Assembly (NCBI GenBank): GCA_008080745.1 | Contig: SHMX01000005.1 | Span: 90,001 to 122,000, forward strand | Direction: 5' to 3' | DNA from: Candidatus Thorarchaeota archaeon | Lineage (GTDB): Archaea > Asgardarchaeota > Thorarchaeia > Thorarchaeales > Thorarchaeaceae | Length of the DNA: 32,000 bases | Shown: positions 6,979-30,884 of the stretch, piece by piece | Layout: each line of letters starts with the position of its first letter | How positions within the stretch are numbered: the stretch's first letter is position 1 | Notes under the pieces: generated by a model | Told to the model about the DNA's origin: nothing | What the model saw: the letters and a program-made list of their open reading frames with translations, nothing else | The model's database searches: none | Made by a program: the position numbers and the translations under genes

Positions 6979-8154
6979 ATGAGAGTCTTTGTCGTTCAAA
7001 ATGTTAGTATGACTCGTCATATGGCTCTTTCTACCTATCTGAGAAATTTTGTAAGTTCCTTATCTCAAATTGATTATCTTGACATAACGGTGCTGACATC
7101 AGAAGGGATTAATAAGAATGCAGATGATTCTGACCACAATATTATCTCCTCTGGAACTGACCTTTATACATTATCTGGAAATTTGTATTTCATTTTCTGG
7201 TCGTTATATACACTATTCCGATGTTCCTTACAAGGGCATATTGATGTTATCCATTGCCTGTATCCCTCTTCATCAACATTAGGTTGTTTACTGTTCAAGT
7301 ATCTATTCAGCCCAAAAACGAAAATTGTGTATGATATTCGCAGTCCTTGGATTATTATGAGCACAAAGCGTGGAAAAATTAGAGGCAGCATGAAGATTTT
7401 CTTTCAGGCAGGTGCTCTAGTATTAGAACGAATTCTATTGAGAATAGTTGATGCTGTTGTATTCATCACCGATGGTCTTCGTAGATATTATGCACAATTG
7501 GGGTTAGAACCTCCAAAAATTTGGATAACATCACCCTCTGGAGTGGATACCGAACATTTTCAACCGAGGGAATCAAACACACTACGAGAGACAATCGGGG
7601 TTGAATCCAGCAGGAAAATATTAGGATATGCCGGAGGGATTGCAGTCACTAGAGAACTCTCTTTTGTTGTGCTATCTTTTAGAAAACTCCAAGAAGAAAC
7701 AAATCAGTCTTGGGCTTTGGTCTTTGTTGGTGACGGCGATAACTTACTAGGTCTGAAACGTCTTGTTCATGATTATCAAATACCTCAAGTTTATTTTGTG
7801 GGCAAAGTATCTTATGATTTGATTCCGGAAATGATTGCCGACTTTGATGTAAGTGTGTGTCATCTCCCTCAAACACCTCTTTTTGATACCTCGTTCCCAA
7901 TGAAAGTTCTCGAGTACCTCGCTTGTGGTGTGCCTGTAATAATGTCCGATATGCCCGCTCATCAAGAATTAGATAAACGATTAAATGGGACATATCTATA
8001 CGATTTTGATGAAACCGATTTCACCAATGCGGCAATCGATGCAGTCCAGTATAATTCGGTGGATACCAGTCAACTAAAATTCTATTCATGGACGGAAATC
8101 GCTTCTAGGATATCCAGATTATATTCTCATCTTATGGTCAAACAATCCCACTAA
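6979..8154 (+). CDS. Glycosyltransferase family 4
   Basis: Motifs PSGVD, GYAGGI, FVGDG and SFPMKVLEYLACG. GAGGA lies upstream of the ATG. Confidence 0.88.
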   Translation: MRVFVVQNVSMTRHMALSTYLRNFVSSLSQIDYLDITVLTSEGINKNADDSDHNIISSGTDLYTLSGNLYFIFWSLYTLFRCSLQGHIDVIHCLYPSSSTLGCLLFKYLFSPKTKIVYDIRSPWIIMSTKRGKIRGSMKIFFQAGALVLERILLRIVDAVVFITDGLRRYYAQLGLEPPKIWITSPSGVDTEHFQPRESNTLRETIGVESSRKILGYAGGIAVTRELSFVVLSFRKLQEETNQSWALVFVGDGDNLLGLKRLVHDYQIPQVYFVGKVSYDLIPEMIADFDVSVCHLPQTPLFDTSFPMKVLEYLACGVPVIMSDMPAHQELDKRLNGTYLYDFDETDFTNAAIDAVQYNSVDTSQLKFYSWTEIASRISRLYSHLMVKQSH

Positions 8155-9472
8155 TGGTTGAGCTGCCTATTGCTCTATATGTGATATTTTTTGGGATTTC
8201 TGTATTAACGAAGACCCTTCGTCCATCCACTAGATATTTCTCTCTCATATTTTCAGTGATTTTCACAAGTCCTATGGATCTATATTCCTTCCAATCGGTC
8301 ATTAGGAATGCCAAATACGAATCTCTCGTGCAGTCCTCTATCGAATCGCATACAGAAAATAACTGTGCAATTTCATTTGGTACTATTTTGAAATTTACCA
8401 CGGGATCATGCACATGTATATCTCCACCATAAGATGCTAAGCGTTGAATTAATGGAATGCTTGGCGAGTCTCTAATATCATCAGTATCTGCCTTGAATGC
8501 CATCCCTAGAATTGAAATTTTCTTCCCCTTTAGTTCAGATAGAGGTATACCTACGAGGGAAAGAAGTCTGTCCGTTGTACTTCTATTGACTTTTTGGACT
8601 GATTCTAATAGGTTCATGGGGAGCTCTCTTTGCCGCCCAAGATGATATAATCCACTAACATCCTTAGGAAGACATGATCCACCGAAACCTAGTCCTGGTC
8701 TAAGGTGACTATCACATATACGATGGTCTGCAACTACACCGTCCATGACATCATCAATATTGACGTGTGGTATCTTTTCTGCCAAGCTTGCCATCTCATT
8801 CGCGAAAGAAATCTTGGTTGCTAAGAATGAGTTACTTGCGTATTTACACATTTCTGCAGATTCGATAGACATGTGTATTACCGGTGGGTTCTCTCTTTTG
8901 ATGCATGGTAGAATCGCATCTTTATATAGATTATACACCCATTGGTCTGATGCACCTATAATCACTCTATCTGGATAGCGTAGGTCATATATTGCATGTC
9001 CTTGCCGTAGAAATTCCGGTTGAAACACCACACCGAATCTTGTTGAATCAAATTGTTTTTGTAATCGGTCAATTACATATGTTCTGGTGGTTCCTGGAGG
9101 TACTGTGCTTCTCATTCCAATTATCACATAGTCATCAACATAACCATCAAAATTGGTTTCGATTGATTGCATCACAGAGTCCACAGCTTTCAAATCAACC
9201 GATCCATCATAACTAGAAGGAGTATTTACACAAATTAAAATCGCATCTTGAGGAGAATTTTTGTAATCAGAACCAACTGCCTTGAGTCTTCCTCTACTGA
9301 TTCCATCTCTTAATAAGGGTGCCAAATCCGGTTCTGCAATAGGGGTTTCTCCTGCATTGATTAGCTCTACCTTTCTCTCATCAATCTCGATAACTGTAAC
9401 ATCGTGATGTGTTGATAGGACCGCTGCTGTTGTTAATCCAACATATCCTGCACCGTATACCGTTATCTTCAA
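8138..9472 (-). CDS. ugd: UDP-glucose 6-dehydrogenase (UDP-glucose/GDP-mannose dehydrogenase family)
   Basis: Motifs GAGYVG, ICVNTP, RSTVPPGT, PEFLRQG, KYASNSFLATKISFANE, catalytic GFGGSCLPKD and AFKADTDDIRDSP. TTG start with AAGGTGG upstream. Confidence 0.93.
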   Translation of the reverse strand: MKITVYGAGYVGLTTAAVLSTHHDVTVIEIDERKVELINAGETPIAEPDLAPLLRDGISRGRLKAVGSDYKNSPQDAILICVNTPSSYDGSVDLKAVDSVMQSIETNFDGYVDDYVIIGMRSTVPPGTTRTYVIDRLQKQFDSTRFGVVFQPEFLRQGHAIYDLRYPDRVIIGASDQWVYNLYKDAILPCIKRENPPVIHMSIESAEMCKYASNSFLATKISFANEMASLAEKIPHVNIDDVMDGVVADHRICDSHLRPGLGFGGSCLPKDVSGLYHLGRQRELPMNLLESVQKVNRSTTDRLLSLVGIPLSELKGKKISILGMAFKADTDDIRDSPSIPLIQRLASYGGDIHVHDPVVNFKIVPNEIAQLFSVCDSIEDCTRDSYLAFLMTDWKEYRSIGLVKITENMREKYLVDGRRVFVNTEIPKNITYRAIGSSTISGIV

Positions 9473-11844: not shown

Positions 11845-12204
11845 CTAAAAAACGGTGGTCAAAATCAGATCCAGAATTAAAGCTGCTAATACTCCATAAG
11901 CTACCACTATTGGACCTAATGATGCTAAGGTCATGGTTATTGTCATTGCCACTGTCAAAGCAATAATTATTCTGCGTAGAATACCTCTATCAGACGACTC
12001 ATTTTTTTCTTCATTATTTGACTTTGAGTCAAAAAGAAAGAACACCACCAAATTCAACACCGGAAAAACGAACCAGATTGGCTGCCAATTTGTTACAACT
12101 GTTGTTAGTATAATTATAGCCATATAGTACAAGAGATGAAGTAATGTAAGTAGAATTAGTGATCGGTTCCAGTCAAAATCATGCAATGATGCGCGAACTG
12201 ACAT
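11845..12204 (-). CDS. Small hypothetical integral membrane protein (about 4 TM)
   Basis: 119 aa with two pairs of hydrophobic segments separated by a charged loop (KSNNEEKNESSDR). It fills the gap between the flanking genes. Confidence 0.6.
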   Translation of the reverse strand: MSVRASLHDFDWNRSLILLTLLHLLYYMAIIILTTVVTNWQPIWFVFPVLNLVVFFLFDSKSNNEEKNESSDRGILRRIIIALTVAMTITMTLASLGPIVVAYGVLAALILDLILTTVF

Positions 12205-12327: not shown

Positions 12328-14196
12328 ATGGTCGGCACGGTAACATGGATTCCTACGTTGTTTGAATTCGTAGTTCTGACCTTCGTTGCTATATGTTATC
12401 TTCTACCAGGTATTCTTCTTGGTGATATTTTATTCCGACAGAAAAGAAAACTTTGGCGAATTTCTCTGGGCACAAGTATCATTCTTACATATTATATTAT
12501 CATTGGATTCATCTTATCTTCGCTAGCTCTCCTAGTTGAAACAATCTATGCACTCATCTGGTTTGGCACCCTATTTTGCATTGGTATTCCTTGGATTCTT
12601 TCTCGCCGAGATTCTCTCCATCTTGAACTGAACGAAGACACAAAGAAACTTGGAGTATTCATATTTACTGTTTTTCTATTTCTTTTCTTAGCCTACTTCT
12701 CTTGGGAGGGAAAAAATCATGGTGTTGGTGGTTGGGATCGTTCTGAGCATGTGGTCAAACTTCTTTATCTGGTATATCATAATACAATTCCAGAAACTGA
12801 GATAGGTATGCTAACAAATGCATTCTACCCTCAAGGACTCAATCTGAATCTTTTCATGTTTTACTCATTAACGCACACCATTAACCACCAAATAGTATTG
12901 CAGATGATAATTGTTTGGTATTTTGCTGCAAATCTCGCAGCACTTGTTATTCCTCTTGCAGCTGTAGCTTCAGAGATAAAATCTGATATCCGTCTTGTAA
13001 TGTTGACAGTTTTCTGCTATATCCCTGGGAGCTATCTCCTTATTTTCGAATCCATGCCTTCCAGTCTTGCTATGTTCTTGGTAGGAAATATTCTCCTTCT
13101 ATCAATAACTGAAAAACAAACACTAAGATTCATTCCTATCAAAATCCTACTATTATTAGGTGTGATTGCGATACATCTAGTAATTTTTCTCTATACTAGT
13201 TTGATTCTGATTGGTATTGCTATCAGCCGATTTAGATATCCCCGCCAAATGTTTGTAGGAATAATTACTAGTTTCATTTCTCTAATTTTGGCCGGACTTT
13301 TCTATGCTGGATTACTCTTCACTACGGAGCCATCTCTTTTATGGGGTACAATAGAGTTTGCCTTTAATGCCCAAAATCCAATTCCTCGTTCTACTCTTCC
13401 TCTACTACAATTCAATGTCTTTTCACTTCTTCCAACCCGTTTCTCTGGATTCAGCTTCTATCTATTCACAATTATGGGAATCCTTCCTGTATTTCTGCTT
13501 GGATTGTATAATGTTTTTAGAGAGAAACATTGGGGGTTGGCTGGATTATGTCTTGTTTCTATTTACATCTCATTAGCAGAATTTGCAAGATTCAATAATA
13601 GGGTGCGTTTCTTCATGCTTTATCCTGTTGCAATCATTAGTGCTATTGGGATTCTTGTATTGATTGATATTATTAGGTCCAGAAATTGGAGTGATACTAT
13701 ATCTCTCTTTCATCCGAAACAAGCTGCTACATTGGTTATCTCACTTATTGTTCTCTCCTCTGTTTTCACATGTGTTTCATTTGCATCTGCCGGATATGGT
13801 AATGCGACAAGCAGCTGGGCTGGTAGGGATCATACATTTTTGGATAATGGAGTGTTTTTATGTGTGGGATGGATGCATTTGGCCGGTCTAAATGATATTG
13901 GGATTATAGCTACACCTCACGATGCAGTATACTATCAAATTTTTGAATCATTATCCAATAACAAAATTTTGATGGGATCTACATGGGACTCTCCTCAAAG
14001 TTTTGCTGATGTTCGACTACTATTCAATGACACTACCGATTCTACCATTATTCAGGAAATCGTTTCCAATTACCATATTGAAGCTTTCCTGGTTCGTGGT
14101 GATGATGCATCTTATGATCACATCCTTGAGATATATTCTGGCACTACACTATTTTACGGGCCTTACGATTATGTGGTTGGTATGTTATCATACTAA
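12328..14196 (+). CDS. Polytopic membrane protein, putative GT-C fold glycosyltransferase
   Basis: Many TM segments, N-terminal 'YLLPG' helix, first external loop 'GWDRSEH...FYPQG', and a C-terminal soluble domain ending in 'LFN...IVSNYHIEAFLV'. GGAG lies upstream. Confidence 0.65.
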   Translation: MVGTVTWIPTLFEFVVLTFVAICYLLPGILLGDILFRQKRKLWRISLGTSIILTYYIIIGFILSSLALLVETIYALIWFGTLFCIGIPWILSRRDSLHLELNEDTKKLGVFIFTVFLFLFLAYFSWEGKNHGVGGWDRSEHVVKLLYLVYHNTIPETEIGMLTNAFYPQGLNLNLFMFYSLTHTINHQIVLQMIIVWYFAANLAALVIPLAAVASEIKSDIRLVMLTVFCYIPGSYLLIFESMPSSLAMFLVGNILLLSITEKQTLRFIPIKILLLLGVIAIHLVIFLYTSLILIGIAISRFRYPRQMFVGIITSFISLILAGLFYAGLLFTTEPSLLWGTIEFAFNAQNPIPRSTLPLLQFNVFSLLPTRFSGFSFYLFTIMGILPVFLLGLYNVFREKHWGLAGLCLVSIYISLAEFARFNNRVRFFMLYPVAIISAIGILVLIDIIRSRNWSDTISLFHPKQAATLVISLIVLSSVFTCVSFASAGYGNATSSWAGRDHTFLDNGVFLCVGWMHLAGLNDIGIIATPHDAVYYQIFESLSNNKILMGSTWDSPQSFADVRLLFNDTTDSTIIQEIVSNYHIEAFLVRGDDASYDHILEIYSGTTLFYGPYDYVVGMLSY

Positions 14197-14289
14197 ATGA
14201 AATGCTTGACTAACCAAATGGTTAAGTGGATGACTTGATTCAAGCTACTGGTAGCATTAGTATGTTCCACTTGGTCAGGGTGATTGTCT

Positions 14290-15786
14290 ATGTCTGGCGA
14301 ACAAATAGCAAAATCTGAAAAACCAACGAAGAAAAGCTATGTTCGTTCCGGATTAATCTTCATGACCCTTTCGCTTGCAGCACATAAAGGACTTTTATTT
14401 ATCCTCCGTATTCTTTTAGCACGATATCTGTCAGTCGGAGAATATGGTCTTGTTACCTACTGTTGGGGCACAGGAACAACTATTGGTTTTCTTCTAATGT
14501 TTGGACGGGAACATGATGCAGTTGTAGACATCCCCCGAATGAGTCCTAACGAGTTATCCAAAGAAACCAAATATCTCCTAAAAATTGCGATTGGTATTGG
14601 TGTGGTTTTTCTATGGGGGACTTTATCTATTCTCATTACTACCAATGTAGAACTTAGAATTTGGGCTCTGGTTGGTTATGCATTATCTAATCTAATTTTC
14701 CAGATGGAATACTACACTCTTATCAGCACGAAGAGTTTCAAATCACATCTCGTACTAACATCGATTTTTAATGGGGGATCTGTTCTTGCTGTTATCATTC
14801 TTGGACAAATGTCCATTATAACCCCTCAAAATGCAATACTCTCGATACTGGTATTATCAACTGTAGCGAGCGTTTTTGGTGCTATTCTAATTCGTATTAT
14901 TGGAACAGTCGATGAAAAACAGCATGAGATAAAGATCGAATCCAAACGTGTTTGGAGCTTCTCCCGCTTTGAATCTTCAAATCTTCATTACTTCACTGCT
15001 GATATCTGTACAACTCTAATTCCACTTCTTCCAGTTCTTCTACTTGATTTCTTTGCAGGGTACGAAGAGGTTGGTTTTTTTGGACTTTCTCTATCTTTGT
15101 ATAGGGCATCTGTAATTATTGCTGTGATAATCAATATAACTTATGGCCCCGGACTATCAAAAACTTATATTCAAAATAAATCAGAATATTCACGACTATT
15201 CCGGGAAAGTTTTCAACTAACTGTGTTTCTTCAAGGTGCTGGAGCAATAGGTTTAGGTATGCTTGCTGGTCCCGTGATATCTGTTTTAGCTGATGTCCGT
15301 TATTTAGATTCTATCAATGTTCTACAAATTTTACTATTTGGTGCGTGTTTCGAAGCACTATATTTTGTTTCGAGTTCAGTTCTTCGAACCGCAGGTCATT
15401 CCTCCACCCTATCCAGAATCAATATTGTTGCTCTAGGGGTTTTTGTAATCATTGGCCCAATTTCGGTAGCACTTATAGGTCTACAGGGTGCGGCTTTATC
15501 CTATGCGATTGTTGTTGGCGTCCAGGCTTCTTGTAGTTTTACTGCAGTTTGGCTCAACAAGAACACATATCCAGAGAGTGCTTTGAAAAGCAGCCTTCTT
15601 CAACGTGTATTTTTACTATCTCTTATTCCAAGTGTTTTCCTGAGTTTAGTGGTGTTTTCTGGAGTGGGAATCTCGTTAGCTTGGTTGATTGTTTTTCTTG
15701 CAATTTACTACCTAGTAAGTCACGGGTTAGATGTGCTCAAACTTACTGATGTTCGTGATTTTCTTTTATCTGGAAGTTTTGAATAG
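14290..15786 (+). CDS. Wzx/MATE-like oligosaccharide flippase
   Basis: Motif 'RILLARYLSVGEYG', about 12-14 TM segments and 'EEVGFF' in the second half. GGGTGA lies upstream of ATG 14290. Confidence 0.85.
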   Translation: MSGEQIAKSEKPTKKSYVRSGLIFMTLSLAAHKGLLFILRILLARYLSVGEYGLVTYCWGTGTTIGFLLMFGREHDAVVDIPRMSPNELSKETKYLLKIAIGIGVVFLWGTLSILITTNVELRIWALVGYALSNLIFQMEYYTLISTKSFKSHLVLTSIFNGGSVLAVIILGQMSIITPQNAILSILVLSTVASVFGAILIRIIGTVDEKQHEIKIESKRVWSFSRFESSNLHYFTADICTTLIPLLPVLLLDFFAGYEEVGFFGLSLSLYRASVIIAVIINITYGPGLSKTYIQNKSEYSRLFRESFQLTVFLQGAGAIGLGMLAGPVISVLADVRYLDSINVLQILLFGACFEALYFVSSSVLRTAGHSSTLSRINIVALGVFVIIGPISVALIGLQGAALSYAIVVGVQASCSFTAVWLNKNTYPESALKSSLLQRVFLLSLIPSVFLSLVVFSGVGISLAWLIVFLAIYYLVSHGLDVLKLTDVRDFLLSGSFE

Positions 15787-15941: not shown

Positions 15942-17084
15942 ATGATTATTGGCAGTCCTAAAGAAATCAAAATTGGCGAAGCCAGAGTAGGTATGACTCC
16001 TCTTATGGTTCGCGAACTAAATAATGCCGGCCACGAAATAGTTGTTGAAAATGGTCTTGGAGAGTTATCTGGTCACTCAGATACAGAATATGAAGAAGCT
16101 GGAGCCACACTCGCAAAAAAGCAACGAGTCTTTGATGAAGCAGAATTCATTGTGAAATTCAAGAACCCGTTTGAAAAGGAATTGAAATACTTTCATGAAG
16201 GTCAGATATTATTTACCTATTTACACCTTGATGAAAACGCACCCCCCTCCTACACAGAATCACTTTTGAATCTTGGAATCACAGGAATCGCATATGAATG
16301 GGTCGAGCTTGATGATGGTTCACATCCTCTTTTAGATCCGATGAGCCATGTAACTGGTATTGTTGTAGCCCAAAAAGCGATGGATCTAATTACATATCCT
16401 AAAGGAAAAGCTTTGATGGTAGGACATATAGAACCTGGTATCCCATCTGCTCGTGTAACAATTGTGGGTGGGGGTCATATTGGACTTATGACTGCAAAGA
16501 CCTTTTTGGGAATCAATGCTGATGTGACTGTGGTCGATAAACATCCTGAAACACTTGTTGAGCGGCTTTCGAGATTTGTCCCTGGTGATATTGCCAAACG
16601 AGTCAAGGGTGTGTTATCCACAAATGAAAACTTGGTTTCAATTATTCCCAGTACTGATATCCTAATTAACGCGGCTGTTCGGCGTCCGGATTTCAAACAA
16701 CCTCATCTTATCACCAAGGAGATGATTCTGACTATGGAGCCGGGCTCTGTAGTAATCGATGCTACTGCGTGTGACAAAGACATGCTTGAAACATCCCTTT
16801 CAACCACTCACCTCGATCCTATTTATGACGTTGAAGGAATCATTCATTATTGTGTTGATAATGTTCCATCGGGTGTGGCAAGAACTTCCACTGCGTTATT
16901 AACAAAATACACCTTTCCATACATTCGGGAGATTGCAAATAAGGGCATCAAGAAGGCATTGGAGGATAATATTCCACTGCAGCGTGGTGTTCAGTTCATC
17001 CGAGATAAGTTTGTACATGAATATGTGGCGAAGAAGAAAGGATTTGAACTAAGTGATTTTGATGAAGCACTTGCCCTATTGTAA
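15942..17084 (+). CDS. ald: Alanine dehydrogenase-like protein (AlaDH/PNT family), divergent
   Basis: Motifs IIGSPKEIK.GEARV, KFKNP, FTYLHL, PLLDPMS, GGGHIG, YCVDNVP and RTST. ATG 15942 has AGGTG upstream. Confidence 0.85.
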   Translation: MIIGSPKEIKIGEARVGMTPLMVRELNNAGHEIVVENGLGELSGHSDTEYEEAGATLAKKQRVFDEAEFIVKFKNPFEKELKYFHEGQILFTYLHLDENAPPSYTESLLNLGITGIAYEWVELDDGSHPLLDPMSHVTGIVVAQKAMDLITYPKGKALMVGHIEPGIPSARVTIVGGGHIGLMTAKTFLGINADVTVVDKHPETLVERLSRFVPGDIAKRVKGVLSTNENLVSIIPSTDILINAAVRRPDFKQPHLITKEMILTMEPGSVVIDATACDKDMLETSLSTTHLDPIYDVEGIIHYCVDNVPSGVARTSTALLTKYTFPYIREIANKGIKKALEDNIPLQRGVQFIRDKFVHEYVAKKKGFELSDFDEALALL

Positions 17085-17127: not shown

Positions 17128-18531
17128 GTGATGCACGTATTGCTAAGATTTGTAACCACCAAGTTCATGCTTCCCGTTTTTCAAATGATGAGTGGAAGTA
17201 AATTTCTTAGTTATATGAAACAACTACGGAAAAGCCAATGGTGGACCCTGTCAGAATTGAACAAGTTACGGAATAAGCGACTAAGATGTCTGATTAATCA
17301 TGCATATGATACAGTTCCTTATTATAGACGTTTATTCCGACAGCGTGGTCTTACACCCCAAGATATTCGCACGGTTGAGGATTTGGTCAAACTTCCAGTC
17401 ATGACAAAGGACATAATACGTAGAAATTTTGATGAGCTTGTATCTCGAAAGATTCCAAAGGGAAAGGTGAAACTCCGAGCCACTGGGGGATCTACTGGTG
17501 AACCCCTCAATTTTTATGTATCTCAGGAAACAATGGATTATTCAGAGGCAACCCGATTACGTGGCTGGGAGATAGCAGGTTACCAGTTTGGAGAAAAATC
17601 AGCCAAACTTTGGGCATCCACATTTGATGCTAAGAAACTGTTCTCTCTAAAATCAAGGTTTAGGAGATATCTTCATCGTCATTTGCTTCTTGATTCCAAC
17701 GTACTAACTCCTACCACTATGAAAATCTATACCGAACAACTCCGTCAATACAAACCTACTCTTCTGATGGGATATACTTCATCTCTATTCAAATTAGCAG
17801 AATTCATTCTAAATTCTGATGATATTGAACCTCTCAGTATACCTGCAATAGTAACAGGTGCAGAAACACTTTACCCTCATTGGAGACCATTACTGCGTAA
17901 TGCATTCGGTGGAGAAGTTTTCAACCACTATCTAACCAGAGAAACCTGTGTGTCATCTGATGAATGCCCTTCTCATGAGGGCTCTCATGTATCAATTGAA
18001 GTTGGCCACTTAGAGATCTTGTCCGAAAATGAAAGTGTTATTGATGAACACGGCAGAGTTCTTGTTACTGATTTCTTTAATTTTGCAATGCCATTCATTC
18101 GATTTGACCTTCAAGATGTTGCATTATTGAAATCCGAGAGATGTTCATGTGGAAGATCTCTTCCCTTGTTAGATAAAATTCTTGGCAGAATCAATGATCT
18201 TATTGTTTCTCCTACTGGTGTGACTTATAATCCCGTATTCTTCATGTGGTTGGTCTATCGAAATCCATGGAAGGCAGACAAGCTAGAAGGAATTCAAGAT
18301 TACCAAATAGTTCAGCAAAAAATCGATTATCTTATTGTTAATATAGTGCCCACTGAGGACATGCCCATTGAAATACCCGATTTGATCCGAGAGAATATTT
18401 TACGAGAAACCAAAAACGAATTTGAAGTGGAAATAAGACTGGTAGACGAATTGCCATTGACTCAAGCTGGTAAACGAAGATATGTAATTTCAGAAATCAG
18501 TACGACACCGACCTTCAATTTCGAGAACTAG
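17128..18531 (+). CDS. PaaK/CapK-like adenylate-forming ligase (phenylacetate-CoA ligase family)
   Basis: Motifs HAYDTVPYYR, LPVMTK, P-loop ATGGSTGEP, AMPFIRF, GRINDL, YQIVQ and C-terminal GKRR. Confidence 0.88.
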   Translation: MMHVLLRFVTTKFMLPVFQMMSGSKFLSYMKQLRKSQWWTLSELNKLRNKRLRCLINHAYDTVPYYRRLFRQRGLTPQDIRTVEDLVKLPVMTKDIIRRNFDELVSRKIPKGKVKLRATGGSTGEPLNFYVSQETMDYSEATRLRGWEIAGYQFGEKSAKLWASTFDAKKLFSLKSRFRRYLHRHLLLDSNVLTPTTMKIYTEQLRQYKPTLLMGYTSSLFKLAEFILNSDDIEPLSIPAIVTGAETLYPHWRPLLRNAFGGEVFNHYLTRETCVSSDECPSHEGSHVSIEVGHLEILSENESVIDEHGRVLVTDFFNFAMPFIRFDLQDVALLKSERCSCGRSLPLLDKILGRINDLIVSPTGVTYNPVFFMWLVYRNPWKADKLEGIQDYQIVQQKIDYLIVNIVPTEDMPIEIPDLIRENILRETKNEFEVEIRLVDELPLTQAGKRRYVISEISTTPTFNFEN

Positions 18532-18618: not shown

Positions 18619-21234
18619 TTGAATCAATCTCAATCAAATAACGAGATTGTTGGACACAATCCCATAAGAGACTGTTCAATCCATGTTGGCTCCAATGTAC
18701 TCTATCGTATAGGTGCTTACCAATTTCTAACTACAATTCTATTTGTTGCGCTTCAAATTTTGCCAAATTCAATATTTCTTTTCCCTTTGCAACTAATATC
18801 CGGATTCTGTTCCATCATCATATTTCCTGGCTTTCTATTGAATCAGCTCTTTATCCCGATAGAATACAGAAATATTGGGACGATTATCTTAGTCGCCTGT
18901 GTGATTACATTATTTGAAATACAAATTGCCTTTACTATTACTCTGTTGACTGGTTTTGTATTTCCCCTTTATGTATGGGTTGTTGGATTCAACTCTATTG
19001 TTTTCATGATTGCATTTTACAGATTATTGCAGGAGGAAAACATATCGAGTGATTCTGTTATTTTCTCACTTTCTTCGAAGTTGAATCAGATAGCGGTTAT
19101 CGCATTAATCCTTAGAGTGATTATGTTATATTTTGGACAAAACTCCATCGGTCCAGATGCTGCTCTATATGCTGATTATGCACGAAATATGCTTGAAGGC
19201 GATTTTTCGAGTTCTATTCTTAATGATGTAGCTGTTCAAACCCTCTGGAATGGCGTACAATATGTCTGGCATCAGGGTTTTGTGTATTTCACAGGCTTAT
19301 CGTGGTTGCTTTTTGAACCAACCGCAATTGGTACTAATATTCTGCTTGTTATTATTGGCACCTTGCTGTTATATCCTGTTTATACAATCACCGACCATTT
19401 TTTTGGAACCAAAGCAGCTTATTATACCTCGATTTTGGTAGCAATCCACCCACTTTTCATTTATCATTCCGCCATTGGATATGGGCCAGAGATAGTTAGT
19501 CTGTTTTTCCTTCTCTACGCTGCAATCTTCTTAATTCTTGGTCGAGAGAAGGGTGTCCATTTCAGTTTACTCTCTGGAGTTATTGTTGGACTAATCGATG
19601 TAATCTGGTATGCCAATTTCTACATATTCTGTATTCTTCTTCCTTTTGCTCTTTTGTTCTTTAAATTCACTAACTGGTTCGATACAATTCTTTTTGGTGT
19701 CAACCTCTGTGTTATTCTCGCTATTCGGTTGTTTTTGTCCAATATTCAAATTGTTATAATTGGCATTCTGGTAATAATTGTTCTAAACATAATAGGTACT
19801 AAAATCTCGTCTTATAATGTGATTACTTATGCGCCTTTTCTAACAGCAGTTCTTTCAACTATGTTTTTCTGGAAGTGGTCAACATATCTTACACAAAAGG
19901 TAGAAACACCTGATTCGGGTCGAAAAATACTTGATGTCATTTTTGGGTACATAGACCCCATAGTGCTTCTCCGATTTGCTTTCTTTGTGTTTTTCCATCT
20001 CACACCTATCTTGTTCGGTTTATTGATTTGGACCTTACTCAGAAAACCATCTCGAGTGACTACATCATTTTTCACTATTGGTCTACTTGGGGCTGTTGGG
20101 ACTTTGAAAGTATTTGGACTATTCAGCAAAGATACTCTTCTACCATATTATCTCTATTCAGATTCTCGTTTCTTCTTATTCATAATTATAATGTTTATAA
20201 TCGGACTCGGTCCAATTCTTATTAATTTCAAAGAATATCTTACGTATCACCTTTACGAAAAAACTCTATTTTTGAAGATTTCACCAGAAAAGCGGGACAT
20301 AATGATTACTTTTGGAATTATAGCCATTGGATTTATCCCCTCTGTATTAGTTTTCCCGGTGGGTTTGGATCTAATAAATGGCCCTGAAAGATATGGCTGG
20401 ACTGCTTTGGACGAGAAAATTGAATCTCTTGATGCTGATGCCATCTATCTCTGTGATCGCGCTAGGGAGTTCACATGGTTTACAAGAAAACAATCAGTTC
20501 AATTGAGATTTAGCGAAACATATCTACCTGATTTGAATTCTAGTAGAGAACTACTAACATTCGTAAGCCTGTATCATACAAAATATCTGCTTGTTGACGA
20601 TTACTTCTATCAACATTGGCATAACTTGGAATTTCTCTATCTTGGAAATATGTCTGTTGGCACTAGAGTATTTTTGAATTTTTCAAGTATTCCTTATTCT
20701 AATATATTAGATTCAGAGGTTTATTCTACTTCGCTTACTCTCGTGGCAAAAACTGAGCCTAATAAATATGGTAGATATGCTCGGATTTTCGAATTTGGGA
20801 ATAGTTCCTTGACTAGGGTGTGGAACGAAATTCCATCAGATCAAGAGTGGACAGTTTCAGCAGGTGGGGCTATTGAAAATCGTACTGATTCTTTGCAGTT
20901 TATATTGGGTCCCAATCAATCGAAGTTGCATATTGCACGGTCTGAAGGGAATGAGGTCAATACCAAGATACAGCAAGGCTTTCTGATATTGGACTTTTCT
21001 TATGCAGAAGCTCAAATAGAATCAATCAAGGTCTGGAATCACTCTGATTATTTTGTTTCATCTCTGGATTACCTGGGGGCGGGGCGGTATTATGGTTTCT
21101 TTACCAATACTACCATATCAAATATTACAATCACCGTTTCTGGAAATCCCGGGGATTCTATTATATTAAAAGGCGGCTCGATTTGGGATTCTCATACTCT
21201 CTACGATTTCCCTCTCAAAACATACCAGTTTTGA
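18619..21234 (+). CDS. Large polytopic GT-C fold glycosyltransferase-like protein (ArnT/PMT_2-like) with a C-terminal extracellular domain
   Basis: Many TM segments, first-loop acidic motif GPDAALYADYA, LAIHP..IYHS, GYGPEI, and a hydrophilic C-terminal ~250 aa. Paralog of 21249..23855. Confidence 0.72.
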   Translation: MNQSQSNNEIVGHNPIRDCSIHVGSNVLYRIGAYQFLTTILFVALQILPNSIFLFPLQLISGFCSIIIFPGFLLNQLFIPIEYRNIGTIILVACVITLFEIQIAFTITLLTGFVFPLYVWVVGFNSIVFMIAFYRLLQEENISSDSVIFSLSSKLNQIAVIALILRVIMLYFGQNSIGPDAALYADYARNMLEGDFSSSILNDVAVQTLWNGVQYVWHQGFVYFTGLSWLLFEPTAIGTNILLVIIGTLLLYPVYTITDHFFGTKAAYYTSILVAIHPLFIYHSAIGYGPEIVSLFFLLYAAIFLILGREKGVHFSLLSGVIVGLIDVIWYANFYIFCILLPFALLFFKFTNWFDTILFGVNLCVILAIRLFLSNIQIVIIGILVIIVLNIIGTKISSYNVITYAPFLTAVLSTMFFWKWSTYLTQKVETPDSGRKILDVIFGYIDPIVLLRFAFFVFFHLTPILFGLLIWTLLRKPSRVTTSFFTIGLLGAVGTLKVFGLFSKDTLLPYYLYSDSRFFLFIIIMFIIGLGPILINFKEYLTYHLYEKTLFLKISPEKRDIMITFGIIAIGFIPSVLVFPVGLDLINGPERYGWTALDEKIESLDADAIYLCDRAREFTWFTRKQSVQLRFSETYLPDLNSSRELLTFVSLYHTKYLLVDDYFYQHWHNLEFLYLGNMSVGTRVFLNFSSIPYSNILDSEVYSTSLTLVAKTEPNKYGRYARIFEFGNSSLTRVWNEIPSDQEWTVSAGGAIENRTDSLQFILGPNQSKLHIARSEGNEVNTKIQQGFLILDFSYAEAQIESIKVWNHSDYFVSSLDYLGAGRYYGFFTNTTISNITITVSGNPGDSIILKGGSIWDSHTLYDFPLKTYQF
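20155..20174 (+). repeat. 20-nt exact inverted repeat, copy 1 (TATTCAGATTCTCGTTTCTT)
   Basis: Exact reverse complement at 22276..22295; both copies encode YSDSRF in the paralogous GT-C genes. Confidence 0.75.
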
Positions 21235-23855: not shown

Positions 23856-23932
23856 TGGCTCCCTAATTTGGTGGCCAACACAGAACTTCTTAAAAGGTAC
23901 TCGAAAACACACATTTCTTGTATAGAAACTAC

Positions 23933-23946: not shown

Positions 23947-25125
23947 CTGCGAATTTGTCTGATTGCCCCTATGTTTCCTCCTATTCAGAGTGGTTCTTCC
24001 CATTATGCAGAACGTTTGGCGGAAGGACTTGCACAACGCGGTCACGATGTATATGTCATCACATCTTCTGGTGCAGAAATTTCAGATATGAACGATTATC
24101 GTGTCATAGAGATTCCGTCAATAACGACTCCTACGACACCAATGACCCATAATTATGCTCTCCCCTTCAATTTCTTTCCTCTAAATATCCCTCTTCTTAG
24201 AAACATAATCAAGAAGATATCCCCGGATATTGTTCATCTAAACAGCAATTTTTTAGACCTTTGTTTAGGTGCTATGATTGCTGCAAAAGGTCTAGGTATA
24301 GCTACGGTATTAACAGTTCATACCCGTCTTATACATGCAAATAAGTTTCTCAATCCTTTTTTCCGAGCAGTGGATAAATCCTTGATTAAACAGATTTTAC
24401 ACAAGGTGGATGCTTTTGTTGCACTAGACAAACAGATGTATAACTATATTCTAAACACATATGATTTGTCAAAAGATAAGATTCATCCAATTCCCTTAGC
24501 TATCGATCTTGATGAACTCTTGTCTACTCCCACAAAACCAACATTATTAGACACCTTGGAATCACAAAATATCATTGCATCTATTTCTCATTTGACCCTT
24601 CTCAAATCTCCTCGTACATTATTAGAAGCTGTATCTATTATCAAAGACGATTTTGAGGACCTCATAGTTGCATTTGCTGGTCGTGTATGCGATACTAGAT
24701 TTGTGAACTGGGCAAAAGAGCTAGACGTATCTGAACATGTGGTCTTTATGGGTGAAATTCCCCACCATCTTATTCCCTCCGTTCTCAAACGTAGTTGTAT
24801 TGAAGCACACTCATTGGATTATCGAACGGGATTTGATAATGCCTCGATTGAGGCGATGTCACTAGGACTACCAGTAATATCTTGTGTTCCAGAGGATAAT
24901 TTTTTGAGAGAATGGTTGCACAACTGGGAAAATGTAATTCTGGTCGAGCCTTATTCTCCTAATATGGTTGCTGAGGCTCTATACCGTTTGCTAAGCAACC
25001 AAGAGCTAATGCAGAACATCTCGAAAAATGCTGGGCGATCAGCGAAACAATTTTTTTCAATTGAACGTATGCTTGATGATTTTGAACAGCTCTATGCTAA
25101 TTTGGTTGGAGATTTAAACCAATAA
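23947..25125 (+). CDS. Glycosyltransferase family 4 (probable CTG start)
   Basis: An in-frame CTG at 23947 gives (M)RICLIAPMFPP, 7 nt after GAGGAGG. Motifs IVHL, TVHT, IPLAID and FDNASIEAMSLG. Confidence 0.88.
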   Translation: MRICLIAPMFPPIQSGSSHYAERLAEGLAQRGHDVYVITSSGAEISDMNDYRVIEIPSITTPTTPMTHNYALPFNFFPLNIPLLRNIIKKISPDIVHLNSNFLDLCLGAMIAAKGLGIATVLTVHTRLIHANKFLNPFFRAVDKSLIKQILHKVDAFVALDKQMYNYILNTYDLSKDKIHPIPLAIDLDELLSTPTKPTLLDTLESQNIIASISHLTLLKSPRTLLEAVSIIKDDFEDLIVAFAGRVCDTRFVNWAKELDVSEHVVFMGEIPHHLIPSVLKRSCIEAHSLDYRTGFDNASIEAMSLGLPVISCVPEDNFLREWLHNWENVILVEPYSPNMVAEALYRLLSNQELMQNISKNAGRSAKQFFSIERMLDDFEQLYANLVGDLNQ

Positions 25126-26018
25126 TGCAGAGTTGTTTGATAGTCTGATGGTTTTAGACCCCTCTTTTGATATAATCTCATTGCGGCAGTATTATTGAGT
25201 TGGGTTCCTACACTGAGGGTTCGATGCTCATCAATCACATCGGATATCGCTTTATCCAACAATGCACCTCCTAAACCTCTACGTGAATACTTTGGATGAA
25301 CTGCTATCAATCCAATTCTTAGTTCGTCTTTTTCTTCACTCTGATTCGAGCCGAATTTTTCATGAAGCGTGATATAGCCTCCTATCTGATTTCCTTCTTC
25401 AATTACATATACCCTTGAATTATCCGAGTAGAATAGATTCTTTATCCATATAGCATGCATCGCATCAGCTCTTTGTTTTCCAAATTGCTTGTCAGTATGA
25501 AAACGATCCCTGTAGAATGCAATTGCAGAAATCTCCATCAAGTTCCAAATATCTGACTCTTCAGCACTCCGCACCTTTTTGAGAATTCCGTCTTCTCTTG
25601 GAATCAATGTGGAATGACTCGCTCTCAGCGTGCAACTCCAATCATACGATTGGAAGCCATTTGCCTCTAATTGCCGAATCCAATCATCATCATTTAGGGA
25701 TAGACGACTTGAAACAAAAGTTGCACTTGTATCTTTGAGAATACTCATAGATTTCTTTACCATCACTCCGATTTTTTTGTCATTGAAAACCTTTCTAGCT
25801 AATCGAATGGGTTTTACATGATAGCATTCGAACTCGAAAAAAGTAGAATCCCAGTCCAGATGTTCAAGGTAAGATATCATCTGGATAGATTCGTTATCTG
25901 TTATACATGGAAACTCGGAAAAAACATTATTTTGGCTGATAATGTTTTCTTTTCCAACTAGACGTAGTGAAGACTTTATTTTCTCAATTGAACAATTTTT
26001 AACAGTAGGGGATACCAA
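25092..26018 (-). CDS. GNAT N-acyltransferase, TDP-fucosamine acetyltransferase (WecD/RffC)-like
   Basis: Motifs LDWDSTFF, RFHTD..F, LIAVHPKYSRRGLGGAL (acyl-CoA loop) and VGTQLNNTAAMRLY. TTG start with GAGGT upstream. Confidence 0.82.
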   Translation of the reverse strand: MVSPTVKNCSIEKIKSSLRLVGKENIISQNNVFSEFPCITDNESIQMISYLEHLDWDSTFFEFECYHVKPIRLARKVFNDKKIGVMVKKSMSILKDTSATFVSSRLSLNDDDWIRQLEANGFQSYDWSCTLRASHSTLIPREDGILKKVRSAEESDIWNLMEISAIAFYRDRFHTDKQFGKQRADAMHAIWIKNLFYSDNSRVYVIEEGNQIGGYITLHEKFGSNQSEEKDELRIGLIAVHPKYSRRGLGGALLDKAISDVIDEHRTLSVGTQLNNTAAMRLYQKRGLKPSDYQTTLHYWFKSPTKLA

Positions 26019-26122
26019 GTCCGTTACCTCATAATACCGCTATATCTTATTTTTACCCATCCAACGAATAGCCAATAGCTTATTATAATCTATACTACTC
26101 ACTGGCAATGGCGTGAAATTCT

Positions 26123-27247
26123 TTGATTCCTTTCGCAAAACCCGAATTCTCAGAGAAAACCGTTGAAACAATCCTTCAAAATATTTCTGATGCTCTGAAA
26201 TCGGGGTATCTAACAAATGGACCCTATGTTCGCCTAGTTGAAGAAAAATTTTCAGGGATACTTTCTTCATTGTACGTAGCTGCGACAAGCTCATGCACAG
26301 CATCCTTACATCTCGCCATGTTGCTTGCTGGGATTTCCAAAGGAGATGAAGTTATAGTTCCTTCAAATACATTTGTATCCACTGCCAATGCAGTCGTATA
26401 TTGTGGCGGGAAGCCAATTTTTGCTGAGATAGAAACTGATACTTTCAATCTTGACCCCCTTGATGTAGAAAATAAAATTACAGATCAAACCAAGGCGATT
26501 ATTCCTGTTCATCTTGGAGGCAATCCCTGCGATATGACCGCCTTTCAACGGATTGCATCTGAACACAACCTACTTTTAATTGAGGACTGTGCTCATGCTC
26601 ATGGTGCCTATTACAAAAATAATCCCTGTGGAACTTTCGGCGATTTGTCTTGCTTTTCTTTTTATCCCACGAAAGTCATTCCTAGCGCAGAAGGGGGATT
26701 ATTAGTGACTAAAAATCCTGAATTTGATAAAAAAGGAAGAATCCTCCTAAATCAAGGTAGGCAGGGGTTTGGTCCAAGCTCCATCGAAGAAATCGGATAC
26801 AATTATAGAATGAATGAATTACAAGCTATCCTGATCAACTCGCAGATTTCTATGCTGCCTGAATTGATCCAATATCGCACAAAATTAGCGAATCGTTATA
26901 GAAGAAATCTTGCAGACTCAGACTATGTAAATTTACAAGAAGTTCGCGTTGGAAACATCCACTCGTATTATTCCTTCATAGTTAGTCTCCCACATGGCTT
27001 TCGAGACGAAGTTCGTAAACTTCTAACAAAAGAAGGAGTTGAAACAAGTATCTTATACCATCCAATTCACCAGCAGGCAGCCTATCAAAAAATTATTGGA
27101 GCTGATTCTGTATCATTACCTACGACCGAGGATATTTGTTCCAAGACTATTGCTTTACCTATGCATCTTGCTATGGATGAATCAACAGTTGACATCGTTT
27201 CCACAAAACTACTTGAATCAATAGAATGGATTACCAAGAATCAATAA
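26123..27247 (+). CDS. DegT/DnrJ/EryC1/StrS family PLP-dependent NDP-sugar aminotransferase
   Basis: Motifs MIPFAKP, SSCTASLHLA, VPSNTFVST, IEDCAHAHG, FSFYPTK (PLP lysine), EGG, GYNYRMNELQA and LPMH. Confidence 0.93.
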   Translation: MIPFAKPEFSEKTVETILQNISDALKSGYLTNGPYVRLVEEKFSGILSSLYVAATSSCTASLHLAMLLAGISKGDEVIVPSNTFVSTANAVVYCGGKPIFAEIETDTFNLDPLDVENKITDQTKAIIPVHLGGNPCDMTAFQRIASEHNLLLIEDCAHAHGAYYKNNPCGTFGDLSCFSFYPTKVIPSAEGGLLVTKNPEFDKKGRILLNQGRQGFGPSSIEEIGYNYRMNELQAILINSQISMLPELIQYRTKLANRYRRNLADSDYVNLQEVRVGNIHSYYSFIVSLPHGFRDEVRKLLTKEGVETSILYHPIHQQAAYQKIIGADSVSLPTTEDICSKTIALPMHLAMDESTVDIVSTKLLESIEWITKNQ

Positions 27248-27310
27248 CACTAAAGGGCTGATTAACATTTCATTAGAAAATAATTTGTATCAAGAATTCT
27301 GTGAGGGATT

Positions 27311-28474: not shown

Positions 28475-28511
28475 CAATCTTTATCTTTGCTGATTTTTCC
28501 CACGGTTTGAA

Positions 28512-28520
28512 TTATATAAA
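28512..28520 (+). promoter_or_regulatory. TATA-box-like element upstream of the SDR gene
   Basis: TTATATAAA centred about 26 nt upstream of ATG 28542. Confidence 0.4.
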
Positions 28521-29543: not shown

Positions 29544-30884
29544 ATGAAAACAACTCTACGAGAAACCGTGTACATTCGTATGTATGAGCTTGTAACTCGT
29601 AGAAATATCTGGAAACCCCTCAAATCACTTTCAGAATCTCAATGGTACACTCCGAAAGAGATCAGACAGCTCCAAGAGGAGAAACTCCTCCTTCTTATGC
29701 ACCATGCTTATGAAACTGTTCCCTGGTATAGAAAGGTCTTCAATCAAATGGATATTTACTCCCCTAAACAAATATCTATTGAAAGCTTCGAAGAAATGCC
29801 CATACTGAAAAAACGGATTCTTCAACTTCACTACCCCCAAAAATTACTCTCCAGACATTTTGATAGACAGGGTGGGTTTGAGGACCGAACGGGAGGTACA
29901 ACGGGTGGTCCAACTAGATATTTTGTTGGTCCAAAAGCAGCAGGCTATCGAGCTGCCAATGCGACGAGAAACCAACACTGGTATAATTACTTTCATGGGC
30001 AAAGCAATGCCCTCATATGGGGTGCGGAACGCGATCTATCATCCGATAATATACAGTCTCGAATTTTTCAGCAGCTAAGTCTCAATCGAATTGAAATGAA
30101 TGCATGGGATATGACTGAAACGCAGATGCGTAAATTTGCTATAAAGGTACAAAAACAAAGACCAAGAATTTTAGCTGGCTACGCGGGTGCTGTAGCTATA
30201 TTCGCAAAATTCACTCTAGAGAACAACATTGATTTGAAATTTGATAGTGGCATTGTAGTTTCAGGTGAATTACTGACCGATCAAAATAGAGAAATTATTG
30301 AAACCGCATTTGGTTCAAAAATCTTTAACCGATATGGTACGCGAGAGTTTGGTTCTATTGCACACGAATGTTCTTGCCACGATGGTCTTCATATTAATGG
30401 TGAGAGCTTCATAATAGAACAAGGCGAAAAATACGATGATGGTTATTCTCTATTAGTAACTGATCTGAATAATTTCGCTATGCCAATGATCCGTTATGAG
30501 ATTGGGGATGTTGGTCTTCTATCTACTAGAAAATGTAAATGCGGTCGAGGGCTTCCTCTTCTCGAAACCATTTTAGGTAGAACCACAAGTTACATCATCA
30601 CCCCTCAAGGCTCTTATGTTAATGGAATCGTCTTCCCTCATCTTCTTCGCGATTATGGCGAGATTCTAGAATTTAGAGTAATTCAACAAAATATTGATGA
30701 AATTGATATCTTTTTAGTATTAAAGAACCCTCTAGATGAAAAGCAAAAAGAGAGCATTCGAAGACGTCTGAGCAATTTCCTCCAATCAATTAGAATCAAT
30801 CTTATTGAAGTTGACAAGATATCTCTTGCAGATTCGGGAAAGAGAGATCTTGTGACCTCCAAGCTTGTCTTGGAAATGGATTAG
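29544..30884 (+). CDS. PaaK/CapK-like adenylate-forming ligase, paralog of 17128..18531
   Basis: Motifs HAYETVPWYR, P-loop RTGGTTGGP, RYGTREFG, AMPMIRYEIGD, GRT, FRVIQ and C-terminal GKR. AAGGAG lies upstream. Confidence 0.88.
   Translation: MKTTLRETVYIRMYELVTRRNIWKPLKSLSESQWYTPKEIRQLQEEKLLLLMHHAYETVPWYRKVFNQMDIYSPKQISIESFEEMPILKKRILQLHYPQKLLSRHFDRQGGFEDRTGGTTGGPTRYFVGPKAAGYRAANATRNQHWYNYFHGQSNALIWGAERDLSSDNIQSRIFQQLSLNRIEMNAWDMTETQMRKFAIKVQKQRPRILAGYAGAVAIFAKFTLENNIDLKFDSGIVVSGELLTDQNREIIETAFGSKIFNRYGTREFGSIAHECSCHDGLHINGESFIIEQGEKYDDGYSLLVTDLNNFAMPMIRYEIGDVGLLSTRKCKCGRGLPLLETILGRTTSYIITPQGSYVNGIVFPHLLRDYGEILEFRVIQQNIDEIDIFLVLKNPLDEKQKESIRRRLSNFLQSIRINLIEVDKISLADSGKRDLVTSKLVLEMD

Follow-up and report, generated by a model that had tools for sequence, protein, structure and literature searches.

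Why should a gene resembling that of alanine dehydrogenase (AlaDH) lie among genes of archaeal glycan synthesis? The question is raised by a 32,000-nucleotide stretch of a Candidatus Thorarchaeota genome (contig SHMX01000005.1, positions 90,001 to 122,000; hereafter the window), in which the gene in question encodes a protein that we call P0001. A first-pass annotation of this DNA had described P0001 as an AlaDH homologue with rewired active-site loops, which might keep pyruvate binding but accept an amine other than ammonia, for example a nucleoside diphosphate (NDP)-amino sugar made by a DegT enzyme encoded in the same stretch. The analysis presented here upholds that description of the protein and the glycan-tailoring setting of its gene, and replaces DegT with a different partner. 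P0001 is probably a glycan-tailoring enzyme coupled to a ligase, and not a housekeeping AlaDH. By its motifs it belongs to a small, uncharacterised, AlaDH-derived family, which we term the DATACD family; the rewired loops are not peculiar to P0001.

15942..17084, + strand: gene of an AlaDH-fold, NAD-type dehydrogenase of the DATACD family (P0001; translation of 380 amino acids)

The start codon of this gene, the ATG at 15942, is backed by the N-terminal alignment of homologues (MIIG.PKEIK) and by a GGTG about 11 nt upstream. P0001 has the two-domain AlaDh_PNT fold with a Rossmann NAD site that characterizes AlaDHs, and matches both Pfam domains, PF05222 (AlaDh_PNT_N) and PF01262 (AlaDh_PNT_C). 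Its closest solved structures are alanine dehydrogenases (E about 1e-76, or about 1e-90 with the family profile). An AlphaFold2 model built on the family alignment has a pLDDT of 94.5, with the three active-site loops as the blocks of lowest confidence, and Foldseek places the model nearest to AlaDH structures (TM 0.87-0.88), followed by transhydrogenase domain I. Octopine_DH and NAD_Gly3P_dh_N domains were absent from the Pfam matches of P0001 (E up to 0.01); any opine chemistry of this protein would take place on an AlaDH fold. The GC content of the gene (0.41, against 0.38 for the window) gives no hint of recent transfer. By two defining tests, nevertheless, P0001 falls outside canonical AlaDH: its score with TIGR00518, the NCBI equivalog model for AlaDH, is 300.9 bits, under the cutoff of 391.85, and it lacks the catalytic Asp. 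The residues on which this reading depends are as follows.

15984..16163, + strand: 2-oxo-acid-binding and catalytic residues R15 (15984-15986) and K72/K74 (16155-16163), aligned with R15 and K74 of solved AlaDHs
16218..16238, + strand: loop 1, Y93-L-H95-L-D97-E-N99, in which alignments show H95 preserved and two residues inserted, yielding invariant D97 and N99
16467..16538, + strand: Rossmann motif G176-GGHIG-181 and the adenine-ribose Asp, D199, located by sequence position
16671..16703, + strand: loop 2, A244-AVRRPDFKQP-254, with R247-R248 inserted by comparison with the canonical VLIPGAKAP in alignments
16758..16781, + strand: loop 3, D273-ATACDKD-280 in place of D-[VI]-A-I-D-Q-G-G, with C277 in the catalytic-Asp column of HMMER alignments
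16845..16868, + strand: H302-YCVDNVP-309 in place of H-Y-x-V-A-N-M-P in alignments (D306 for Ala, V308 for Met)

A scripted check found R15, K74, H95, the GGGHIG motif (176-181), D199 and N307 where the first-pass annotation had put them, and the same was true of its three altered segments, DATACDKD (273-280), AAVRRPDFKQP (244-254) and MSHVTGI (134-140). Much of the AlaDH machinery is retained: R15, K72/K74, Y93, H95, E119, the PLLxPMS segment, the Rossmann motif and D199 are all present in P0001. The pyruvate-binding R15 and K74 and the catalytic H95 are conserved in the DATACD family, with K72 and K74 invariant and R15 at least 90% conserved in a family alignment (A2). Y93, L130 and M134, which we take to line the AlaDH side-chain pocket, are kept as well. 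D199 indicates, by its position in the sequence, that the cofactor is NAD and not NADP; in the structure of the AlaDH-like protein ADLP from Thermus, the equivalent Asp199 hydrogen-bonds the adenine ribose (bioRxiv 10.1101/2025.10.31.685773).

What has changed is concentrated around the ligands. In HMMER alignments to solved AlaDHs, C277 falls in the column of the catalytic Asp (D269 of the P. lapideum enzyme, 1pjb, by counting; D270 of M. tuberculosis), and the 1pjb alignment sets D278 on Gln, D280 on Gly, N307 on N299 and V308 on M300. We compared 80 variant-motif sequences with 152 canonical AlaDHs; at the columns of residues 277, 278 and 280 the canonical enzymes have Asp, Gln and Gly, each in 100% of sequences. 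Differences fixed between the family and canonical AlaDHs comprise D97 (for Ala), W120 (for Thr), T138 (for Ala), the inserted R247-R248, T275, A276, [C/S]277, D278 and D280. R247 is 99% and R248 93% conserved in the DATACD family, where 100% of canonical AlaDHs have a gap; D278 and D280 are invariant in A2, and D306 is at least 90% conserved there. Because these loop differences are fixed family-wide and D-Q-x-G is 100% conserved in the 152 canonical enzymes, they lie far beyond chance. The loops of M. tuberculosis AlaDH (MtAlaDH) that touch NAD and substrate are formed by residues 94-99, 238-251 and 267-293, of which the first two are the counterparts of loops 1 and 2, and that enzyme is inactivated when His96 or Asp270 is mutated (PMC4691113, citing Agren et al.). 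The changed positions of the DATACD family fall in these three ligand-contacting loops. P0001 is thus no ordinary AlaDH: the residues for oxo acid and NAD are kept and all three active-site loops are rewired, as the first-pass annotation had suggested.

Two details of that annotation hold for P0001 but are not shared by all of its relatives. A Cys does occupy the catalytic-Asp column of P0001, but in the nearest clade (P0003-P0009) the residue is Ser, and we rejected Cys277 as a new catalytic nucleophile for this reason. Similarly, N307 matches the AlaDH Asn in P0001, while most bacterial DATACD members have His at this position.

The extent of the family was examined in several ways. Among the 120 best homologues of P0001, the family motifs are D-[AT]-T-[AG]-[CS]-D-x-D, H-[LF]-D-E-N, A-Y-E-W and A-V-R-R, with D-[VI]-x-x-D-Q-G-G and A-Y-E-T as canonical counterparts; P0001 carries every family motif. 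A profile built from 31 members and searched against 1.84 billion cluster representatives showed a gap in scores, with about 17 full-length representatives at 325-552 bits and all others at or below 303 bits, although a few fragments under the gap still bear the family motif. On this basis we put the family at about 20 clusters (50% identity) in the 1.84 billion proteins, from bacteria and this archaeon. When 185,579 species genomes were scanned with two family-type peptide patterns, only 148 stretches matched, and 80 loci were kept. Of these, 28 are of the DATACD type, and they are distributed among Mesorhizobium, Bradyrhizobium, Pseudovibrio, cyanobacteria, Planctomycetota, KSB1, Poribacteria, Bacteroidales and Thiotrichales; RefSeq labels the bacterial members "hypothetical protein". 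The rest form a third group, from Firmicutes, in which the catalytic Asp is still present. A tree of 63 sequences is split, at a branch with SH-aLRT support of 100, into canonical AlaDH and the Firmicutes group on one side and the bacterial DATACD members together with the window clade on the other; P0001 thus lies on the non-canonical side. The window clade (P0001; P0002 at 73% identity; P0003-P0014 at 52-55%) branches between the bacterial members and canonical AlaDH.

The DATACD family is paralogous to canonical AlaDH. In three of five genomes tested, a canonical AlaDH (485-579 bits) coexists with a DATACD member (187-228 bits); P0001 is the sole AlaDH-family gene of its own genome. No protein of the DATACD type was found in 200 other genomes sampled from the same phylum, 43 of them from the same family. 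Ten of the 200, from a different family, hold homologues at 34-38% identity, and nine of these ten read DQGG and NMP.

The Firmicutes group, which extends to a few other phyla (L024-L087; e.g., 8001-9122 in both L041 and L038), consists of proteins of about 373 amino acids that RefSeq names "alanine dehydrogenase". Their motifs are D-V-A-C-D-E-G-G, A-Y-E-D-I and Y-L-H-S-N-A-H, and H-Y-x-x-D-[HN]-x-P is common to them and the DATACD family. A DegT-like gene comes next after the L038 gene, and a CapK-like gene lies 4 kb downstream.

Could P0001 nonetheless be a housekeeping AlaDH that lies in a glycan island by chance? AlaDH is its best-scoring family in both NCBIfam and the PDB, and it is the only AlaDH homologue of the genome. 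The sub-cutoff score and the loss of the catalytic Asp speak against this explanation, as do the absence of the type from all 200 other phylum genomes sampled and a synteny with ligase genes that is kept across distant relatives (see below). We consider it extremely unlikely, and largely refuted by sequence and context.

A clue to function comes from this conserved synteny, the new result of the analysis. Immediately upstream and downstream of P0001, the window encodes the following.

14284..15786, + strand: Wzx-like flippase, 155 nt upstream of P0001 (weak NF058658 match, 2.7e-5)
17128..18531, + strand: CapK-type (PaaK/F390-synthetase-like) adenylate-forming ligase, 43 nt downstream of P0001 (NCBIfam PaaK/F390/FlxY-type matches)

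The dehydrogenase is paired with a carboxylate-amine ligase in 18 of 40 contigs examined (some of them redundant), the two genes being adjacent or, in L016, within 1 kb. The pairing ligases belong to two unrelated folds, either CapK-type, as in the window, or RimK/LysX-type ATP-grasp. The window ligase and its relatives carry the Pfam domain PF27533, CapK_C (precomputed). CapK-type genes adjoin the dehydrogenase in the window, in L002-L005, L099 and L100, and in the P0018 and P0022 contigs, and that of L016 is the one at a distance. In the nearest clade (L002-L005, L099) a CapK_C gene stands beside the dehydrogenase in all contigs, in either order, and the closest relatives of the window ligase (66%, 55%, then about 37% identity) share contigs with the dehydrogenase's close relatives. 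The CapK pairing recurs among distant dehydrogenase members at 42-44% identity, in the P0018 and P0022 contigs, L100 and L016. The P0022 contig also holds an L-amino-acid-ligase-type ATP-grasp gene, a methyltransferase, PGA_cap and DegT; L100 contains glycosyltransferase, PGA_cap, CapK, dehydrogenase and arginase genes; and L016, from Planctomycetota, has two FemAB-like genes, DegT, dehydrogenase, arginase, a CapK-like gene, a glycosyltransferase and PGA_cap.

A RimK/LysX-like ATP-grasp gene adjoins the dehydrogenase in eight further loci (L006, L009, L011, L013, L101, L102, L103 and L032). Seven of these loci have the ATP-grasp gene immediately downstream, stop/start-coupled to the dehydrogenase gene; the remaining one, L032, is a contig of 2 kb. 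The seven copies of this partner, each of about 335 amino acids, lie at the following positions.

L006, 11224-12252: ATP-grasp partner
L009, 6044-7060: ATP-grasp partner
L011, 2979-3968: ATP-grasp partner
L013, 9171-10172: ATP-grasp partner
L101, 5109-6116: ATP-grasp partner
L102, 1801-2817: ATP-grasp partner
L103, 7847-8848: ATP-grasp partner

These copies align with 65% mean column identity and many invariant residues. Pfam barely detects them, but all seven match a RimK-family model (best E 6e-9), and their profile finds RimK- and LysX-type ligases as its best hits in the PDB. The annotated flanks of ATP-grasp loci show a flippase upstream in L006 and L103 and just downstream in L101, and glycosyltransferases come next in L102 and L103. 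With either type of ligase, every pair whose flanks are annotated is bordered by glycosyltransferases or flippases (L006, L016, L100-L103; in L013, by scan), and the order flippase, dehydrogenase, ligase seen in the window recurs in the bacterial loci L006 and L103. Since the partner has been swapped for a non-homologous enzyme of the same general chemistry, there are good grounds for tying the role of the dehydrogenase to amide-bond formation.

The ligase pairing bears directly on the amine that P0001 might use. The first-pass annotation had looked to a DegT enzyme, with an NDP-4-amino (or similar) sugar as the amine and an N-(1-carboxyethyl) amino sugar as the product. The window does encode DegT and SDR proteins, DegT-like genes occur near members in L016 and the P0022 contig, and the inserted Arg pair could conceivably bind a diphosphate. 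The DegT gene of the window, however, belongs to a different cassette with a ligase of its own.

26123..27247, + strand: DegT-family aminotransferase (domain match), 9 kb from P0001, in the other cassette; context only
29544..30884, + strand: second CapK-type ligase, 31% identical to the first, in the separate DegT-GT4-SDR-CapK-GT4 cassette; context only

This second tailoring cassette occupies 25092-32000 of the window and consists of a divergent GNAT gene followed by the DegT, GT4, SDR, second CapK-type ligase and GT4 genes. Among about 40 contigs, DegT-like genes lie near family members only in the two named above and are thus not conserved with the dehydrogenase, whereas the ligase is; and an NDP-amino sugar substrate would leave that ligase without a role, unless it acts on the new carboxylate. 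We therefore find this explanation improbable. With a ligase as partner instead of DegT, the amine points to an amino acid, free or glycan-linked, over an NDP-amino sugar.

Pairing with an acyl-activating enzyme also invites a non-catalytic explanation, in which P0001 would sense NAD(H) and regulate the enzyme encoded next to it. Thermus ADLP provides a precedent, as an AlaDH-like pseudoenzyme encoded beside, and complexed with, a CoA transferase (bioRxiv 10.1101/2025.10.31.685773). P0001 likewise lacks an essential AlaDH residue and has a conserved acyl-activating neighbor, and D270 and Q271, which contact the nicotinamide ribose in the ADLP structure, are both replaced. The clade of ADLP, however, is defined by loss of the catalytic Lys, while K74, H95 and R15 are invariant or nearly so in the DATACD family, and the new invariant charged loop residues suggest selection for catalysis. 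In addition, the partner of the family is in some loci an unrelated ATP-grasp ligase, and other loci have no ligase partner. A sensor role thus seems very improbable.

The first-pass annotation had raised the question of whether the variant clade is confined to polysaccharide loci. It is not, as roughly half of the sampled loci represent other accessory contexts, but none of the sampled loci looks housekeeping. One class, found in cyanobacteria and Thiotrichales, contains a LYS9-type saccharopine dehydrogenase, PhyH dioxygenases and a methyltransferase; LYS9-type genes are neighbors in four family loci in all, and arginase genes are neighbors of family members in two lineages. The other class is rhizobial: in plasmid loci of Mesorhizobium and Methylobacterium, the neighbors of the family gene encode FAD-dependent oxidoreductases, a LysR regulator and an ABC importer of peptide/opine type. 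Together with the LYS9 and arginase genes, these plasmid loci are circumstantial evidence that the family may handle secondary-amine dicarboxylates and basic amino acids. They also make an amine other than ammonia a reasonable reading, and this much of the earlier proposal stands without the DegT-made NDP-amino sugar.

The plasmids concerned (L105, Mesorhizobium mediterraneum plasmid NZ_CP088152.1; L106, Methylobacterium aquaticum plasmid NZ_AP014706.1) are mobilizable. Further genes in these loci encode a large substrate-binding protein with the ABC importer, a Gfo/Idh/MocA oxidoreductase and a class-V aminotransferase. The layout resembles an opine-type catabolic locus, and recalls known opine-catabolic regions. 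In the nearest metagenomic clade, the dehydrogenase gene is followed by one for an 870-amino-acid Peptidase_M14 protein (L002 6217-8829, L003 3006-5618, L004 2707-5319), and the Pseudovibrio locus L007 has an AstE/AspA-type deacylase (13074-14024). The two types belong to the same clan, and these genes may be recurrent amide-hydrolase neighbors.

What reaction, then, might P0001 catalyze? With R15, K74, H95, E119, Y93, the Rossmann motif and D199 in place, the protein would still bind pyruvate and have the machinery for hydride transfer. The catalytic Asp is gone, and the loops have been rebuilt with R247, R248, D97, D278 and D280 around the point where ammonia would enter. We infer that P0001 uses a bulkier amine than ammonia, most plausibly an amino acid, either free or already amide-linked to a glycan, that reacts through its amino group; the new Arg and Asp residues could bind the carboxylate and ammonium groups of this amino acid. 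Reductive condensation of this amine with pyruvate would give an opine-type N-(1-carboxyethyl) amino acid. We put this opine-type chemistry forward tentatively, as somewhat short of an even chance. The adjacent CapK-type, ATP-dependent ligase would then join the opine-type amino acid to the carboxylate of a sugar, presumably a uronic acid supplied through the UDP-sugar 6-dehydrogenase of the locus. Alternatively, the ligase may act first and the dehydrogenase modify the free amine of the attached amino acid.

8138..9472, - strand: UDP-glucose/GDP-mannose 6-dehydrogenase family gene (three UDPG_MGDP_dh domains), the likely source of a uronic acid that would accept the amide-linked group

Each part of such a product has a parallel in nature. 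In the Vibrio cholerae Vibrio polysaccharide (VPS) pathway, VpsH is genetically required for the addition of glycine to N-acetyl-L-gulosaminuronic acid (L-GulNAcA) on a lipid-linked disaccharide (2026; PMC13463779). The authors of that study relate VpsH to phenylacetate-CoA ligase and, in part, to CapK-like proteins, and propose ATP-dependent carboxylate activation, the chemistry of which was not reconstituted (PMC13463779). Uronic acids of archaeal N-glycans bear amino-acid amides, such as threonine on N-acetylmannosaminuronic acid (ManNAcA) in Methanococcus (PMC11407970). Opine substituents of glycans are known from Providencia rustigianii O14, P. alcalifaciens O23 and O35 and Proteus mirabilis O13. 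They are exemplified by N-epsilon-[(S)-1-carboxyethyl]-L-lysine on galacturonic acid (GalA) in Providencia rustigianii O14 and by the N-(1-carboxyethyl)-alanyl (alanopine) group on 4-amino-4,6-dideoxyglucose (Qui4N) in P. alcalifaciens O35 (PMC10609480; PMC7685785). No enzyme for the N-(1-carboxyethyl) part of glycan opines was found in the literature searched, nor is one named in the reports just cited, and we found no literature linking CapK or 1-carboxyethyl gene clusters with alanine dehydrogenase. A search on Methanococcus AglU (MMP1084), a threonine-attaching enzyme that may be CapK-like, likewise gave nothing. The DATACD family, paired with an amide ligase, may be the missing enzyme class for glycan opines such as alanopine, N-epsilon-carboxyethyl-lysine and their relatives; we offer this broader proposal with more doubt than confidence.

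A simpler possibility, and the main rival, is that P0001 supplies an ordinary amino acid. It would use ammonia to make L-alanine (or another small amino acid, such as glycine from glyoxylate), and the CapK-type ligase would amide-link that product to a uronic acid. All of the pyruvate-binding and Lys/His catalytic residues are kept, along with Y93, L130 and M134; P0001 is the only AlaDH-family gene in the genome; and the function of the lost Asp might be taken over by D278. Sugar acids amidated with L-alanine are also known, from E. coli O167 (PMC7685785) and H. influenzae type d (PMC10609480). Yet no cell lacks alanine, and VpsH works without a dedicated source of glycine (PMC13463779). The catalytic Asp, moreover, is missing family-wide despite its full conservation in canonical enzymes, the concerted and invariant gain of two Arg and three Asp residues in the loops is hard to explain with unchanged substrates, and a canonical AlaDH is also kept in three of the five genomes with a family member. 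We judge dedicated supply to be rather unlikely.

Several observations nevertheless weigh against an opine-forming, ligase-coupled P0001. Where the new Asp and Arg residues lie with respect to the pyruvate site is read from sequence alignment, and D278, one residue past the lost Asp, might replace it and so restore ammonia as substrate. P0001 is nearer to canonical AlaDH (301 bits) than are the bacterial members (187-228 bits) and keeps the AlaDH-type Asn307, and for these reasons the archaeal clade may be functionally less diverged. About half of the family loci have no adjacent ligase. The LYS9, arginase and plasmid hints of opine metabolism all come from bacterial members and none from the window clade; an arginase-family gene was not found in the genome of the window, which is 98% complete.

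The window as a whole is a glycan island rich in glycosyltransferases. It holds at least nine GT4-type genes, one GT2 gene, flippases, the UDP-sugar 6-dehydrogenase, SDR epimerase/dehydratases, DegT and GNAT. Directly past the dehydrogenase-ligase pair lie two convergent open reading frames (ORFs), 18619-21234 (+ strand, 871 amino acids) and 21249-23912 (- strand, 887 amino acids), that have next to no family signal; the sole match for the first is a weak one to PMT_2 (6.5e-4). Both probably encode GT-C-type membrane glycosyltransferases. At the head of the same-strand run that includes P0001, a 622-amino-acid ORF (12328-14196, + strand) and a 119-amino-acid ORF (11845-12204, - strand) have no Pfam or NCBIfam match. 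Outside the window, the small-subunit rRNA match that marks the same genome as archaeal (G000:C2:589938-592348; L104 1501-3911) spans 2411 nt against a model of 1478 positions; this 16S gene thus has about 930 nt extra, in appearance an intron-type insertion.

That sugar acids can carry amide-linked amino acids or opines is old structural knowledge, from O-antigens and capsules of bacteria and, for amino acids, from archaeal N-glycans; only one ligase with genetic support, VpsH, was found in the literature searched. What is new here is a sharply delimited family with an active-site signature, together with a dehydrogenase-ligase module in which the ligase may be of either of two unrelated folds. 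This module is a testable candidate for glycan opine chemistry, and the "alanine dehydrogenase" annotations of DATACD proteins are probably wrong. If the proposal is true, a surface glycan of an Asgard-type archaeon carries an opine substituent, and protein glycosylation in archaea would gain a new kind of tailoring step.

The relation of P0001 to known systems can be summarized by comparison with five of them. L-alanine dehydrogenase (EC 1.4.1.1; TIGR00518; PDB 8hye, 2eez, 1pjb, 2vhx) shares the two-domain AlaDh_PNT fold, at the TM scores of 0.87-0.88 given above. It differs from the DATACD family in having DQGG where the family has [C/S]-D-x-D, and in lacking both the D-E-N insertion after H95 and the Arg-Arg pair in the 238-251 loop; P0001 further shows W120 for Thr and V-D-N-V-P for V-A-N-M-P, and is part of a ligase-coupled accessory module. 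Thermus thermophilus ADLP (TT_C1082), an NAD+-sensing, AlaDH-derived paralog, resembles P0001 in having lost an essential catalytic residue and in forming a clade of its own. The residue lost by ADLP is the catalytic Lys, however, whereas in the DATACD family K74 is invariant (alignments A1 and A2) and the Asp is lost. The partner of ADLP is a CoA transferase that it binds and regulates in response to NAD+, whereas the candidate partner in the DATACD family, by gene pairing, is a CapK or ATP-grasp ligase.

VpsH may parallel the window ligase, as a PaaK/CapK-like protein of a Wzx/Wzy glycan locus that is genetically required for the amide linkage of an amino acid to a uronic acid on the lipid-linked intermediate; the reported roles of the vps genes include no dehydrogenase partner (PMC13463779). 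Saccharopine dehydrogenase LYS1 (2q99, 3ugk) and the LKR portion of human AASS (8dda, 8e8t) belong to the same superfamily as P0001 and condense a 2-oxo acid with a side-chain amine. The family profile matches 2q99, 3ugk and 8dda with E values of 1e-7 to 8e-7, over profile positions 6-119 only, at the N terminus, and by sequence P0001 is not a member of the LYS1/LKR group. The I-D-H/N-L-P of LYS1/LKR (D319-H320 in LYS1, I-D-N-L-P in LKR) may be similar to the C-D-H-I-P or V-D-N-V-P of the DATACD family, the profile having aligned the N-terminal domain only. N5-(1-carboxyethyl)-L-ornithine synthase (CEOS) of Lactococcus lactis, a shorter (about 313 amino acids), NADPH-dependent enzyme of the AlaDH/PNT superfamily, joins pyruvate to the side-chain amine of ornithine or lysine. 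To our knowledge, this reaction is the closest known chemistry to that proposed here for P0001.

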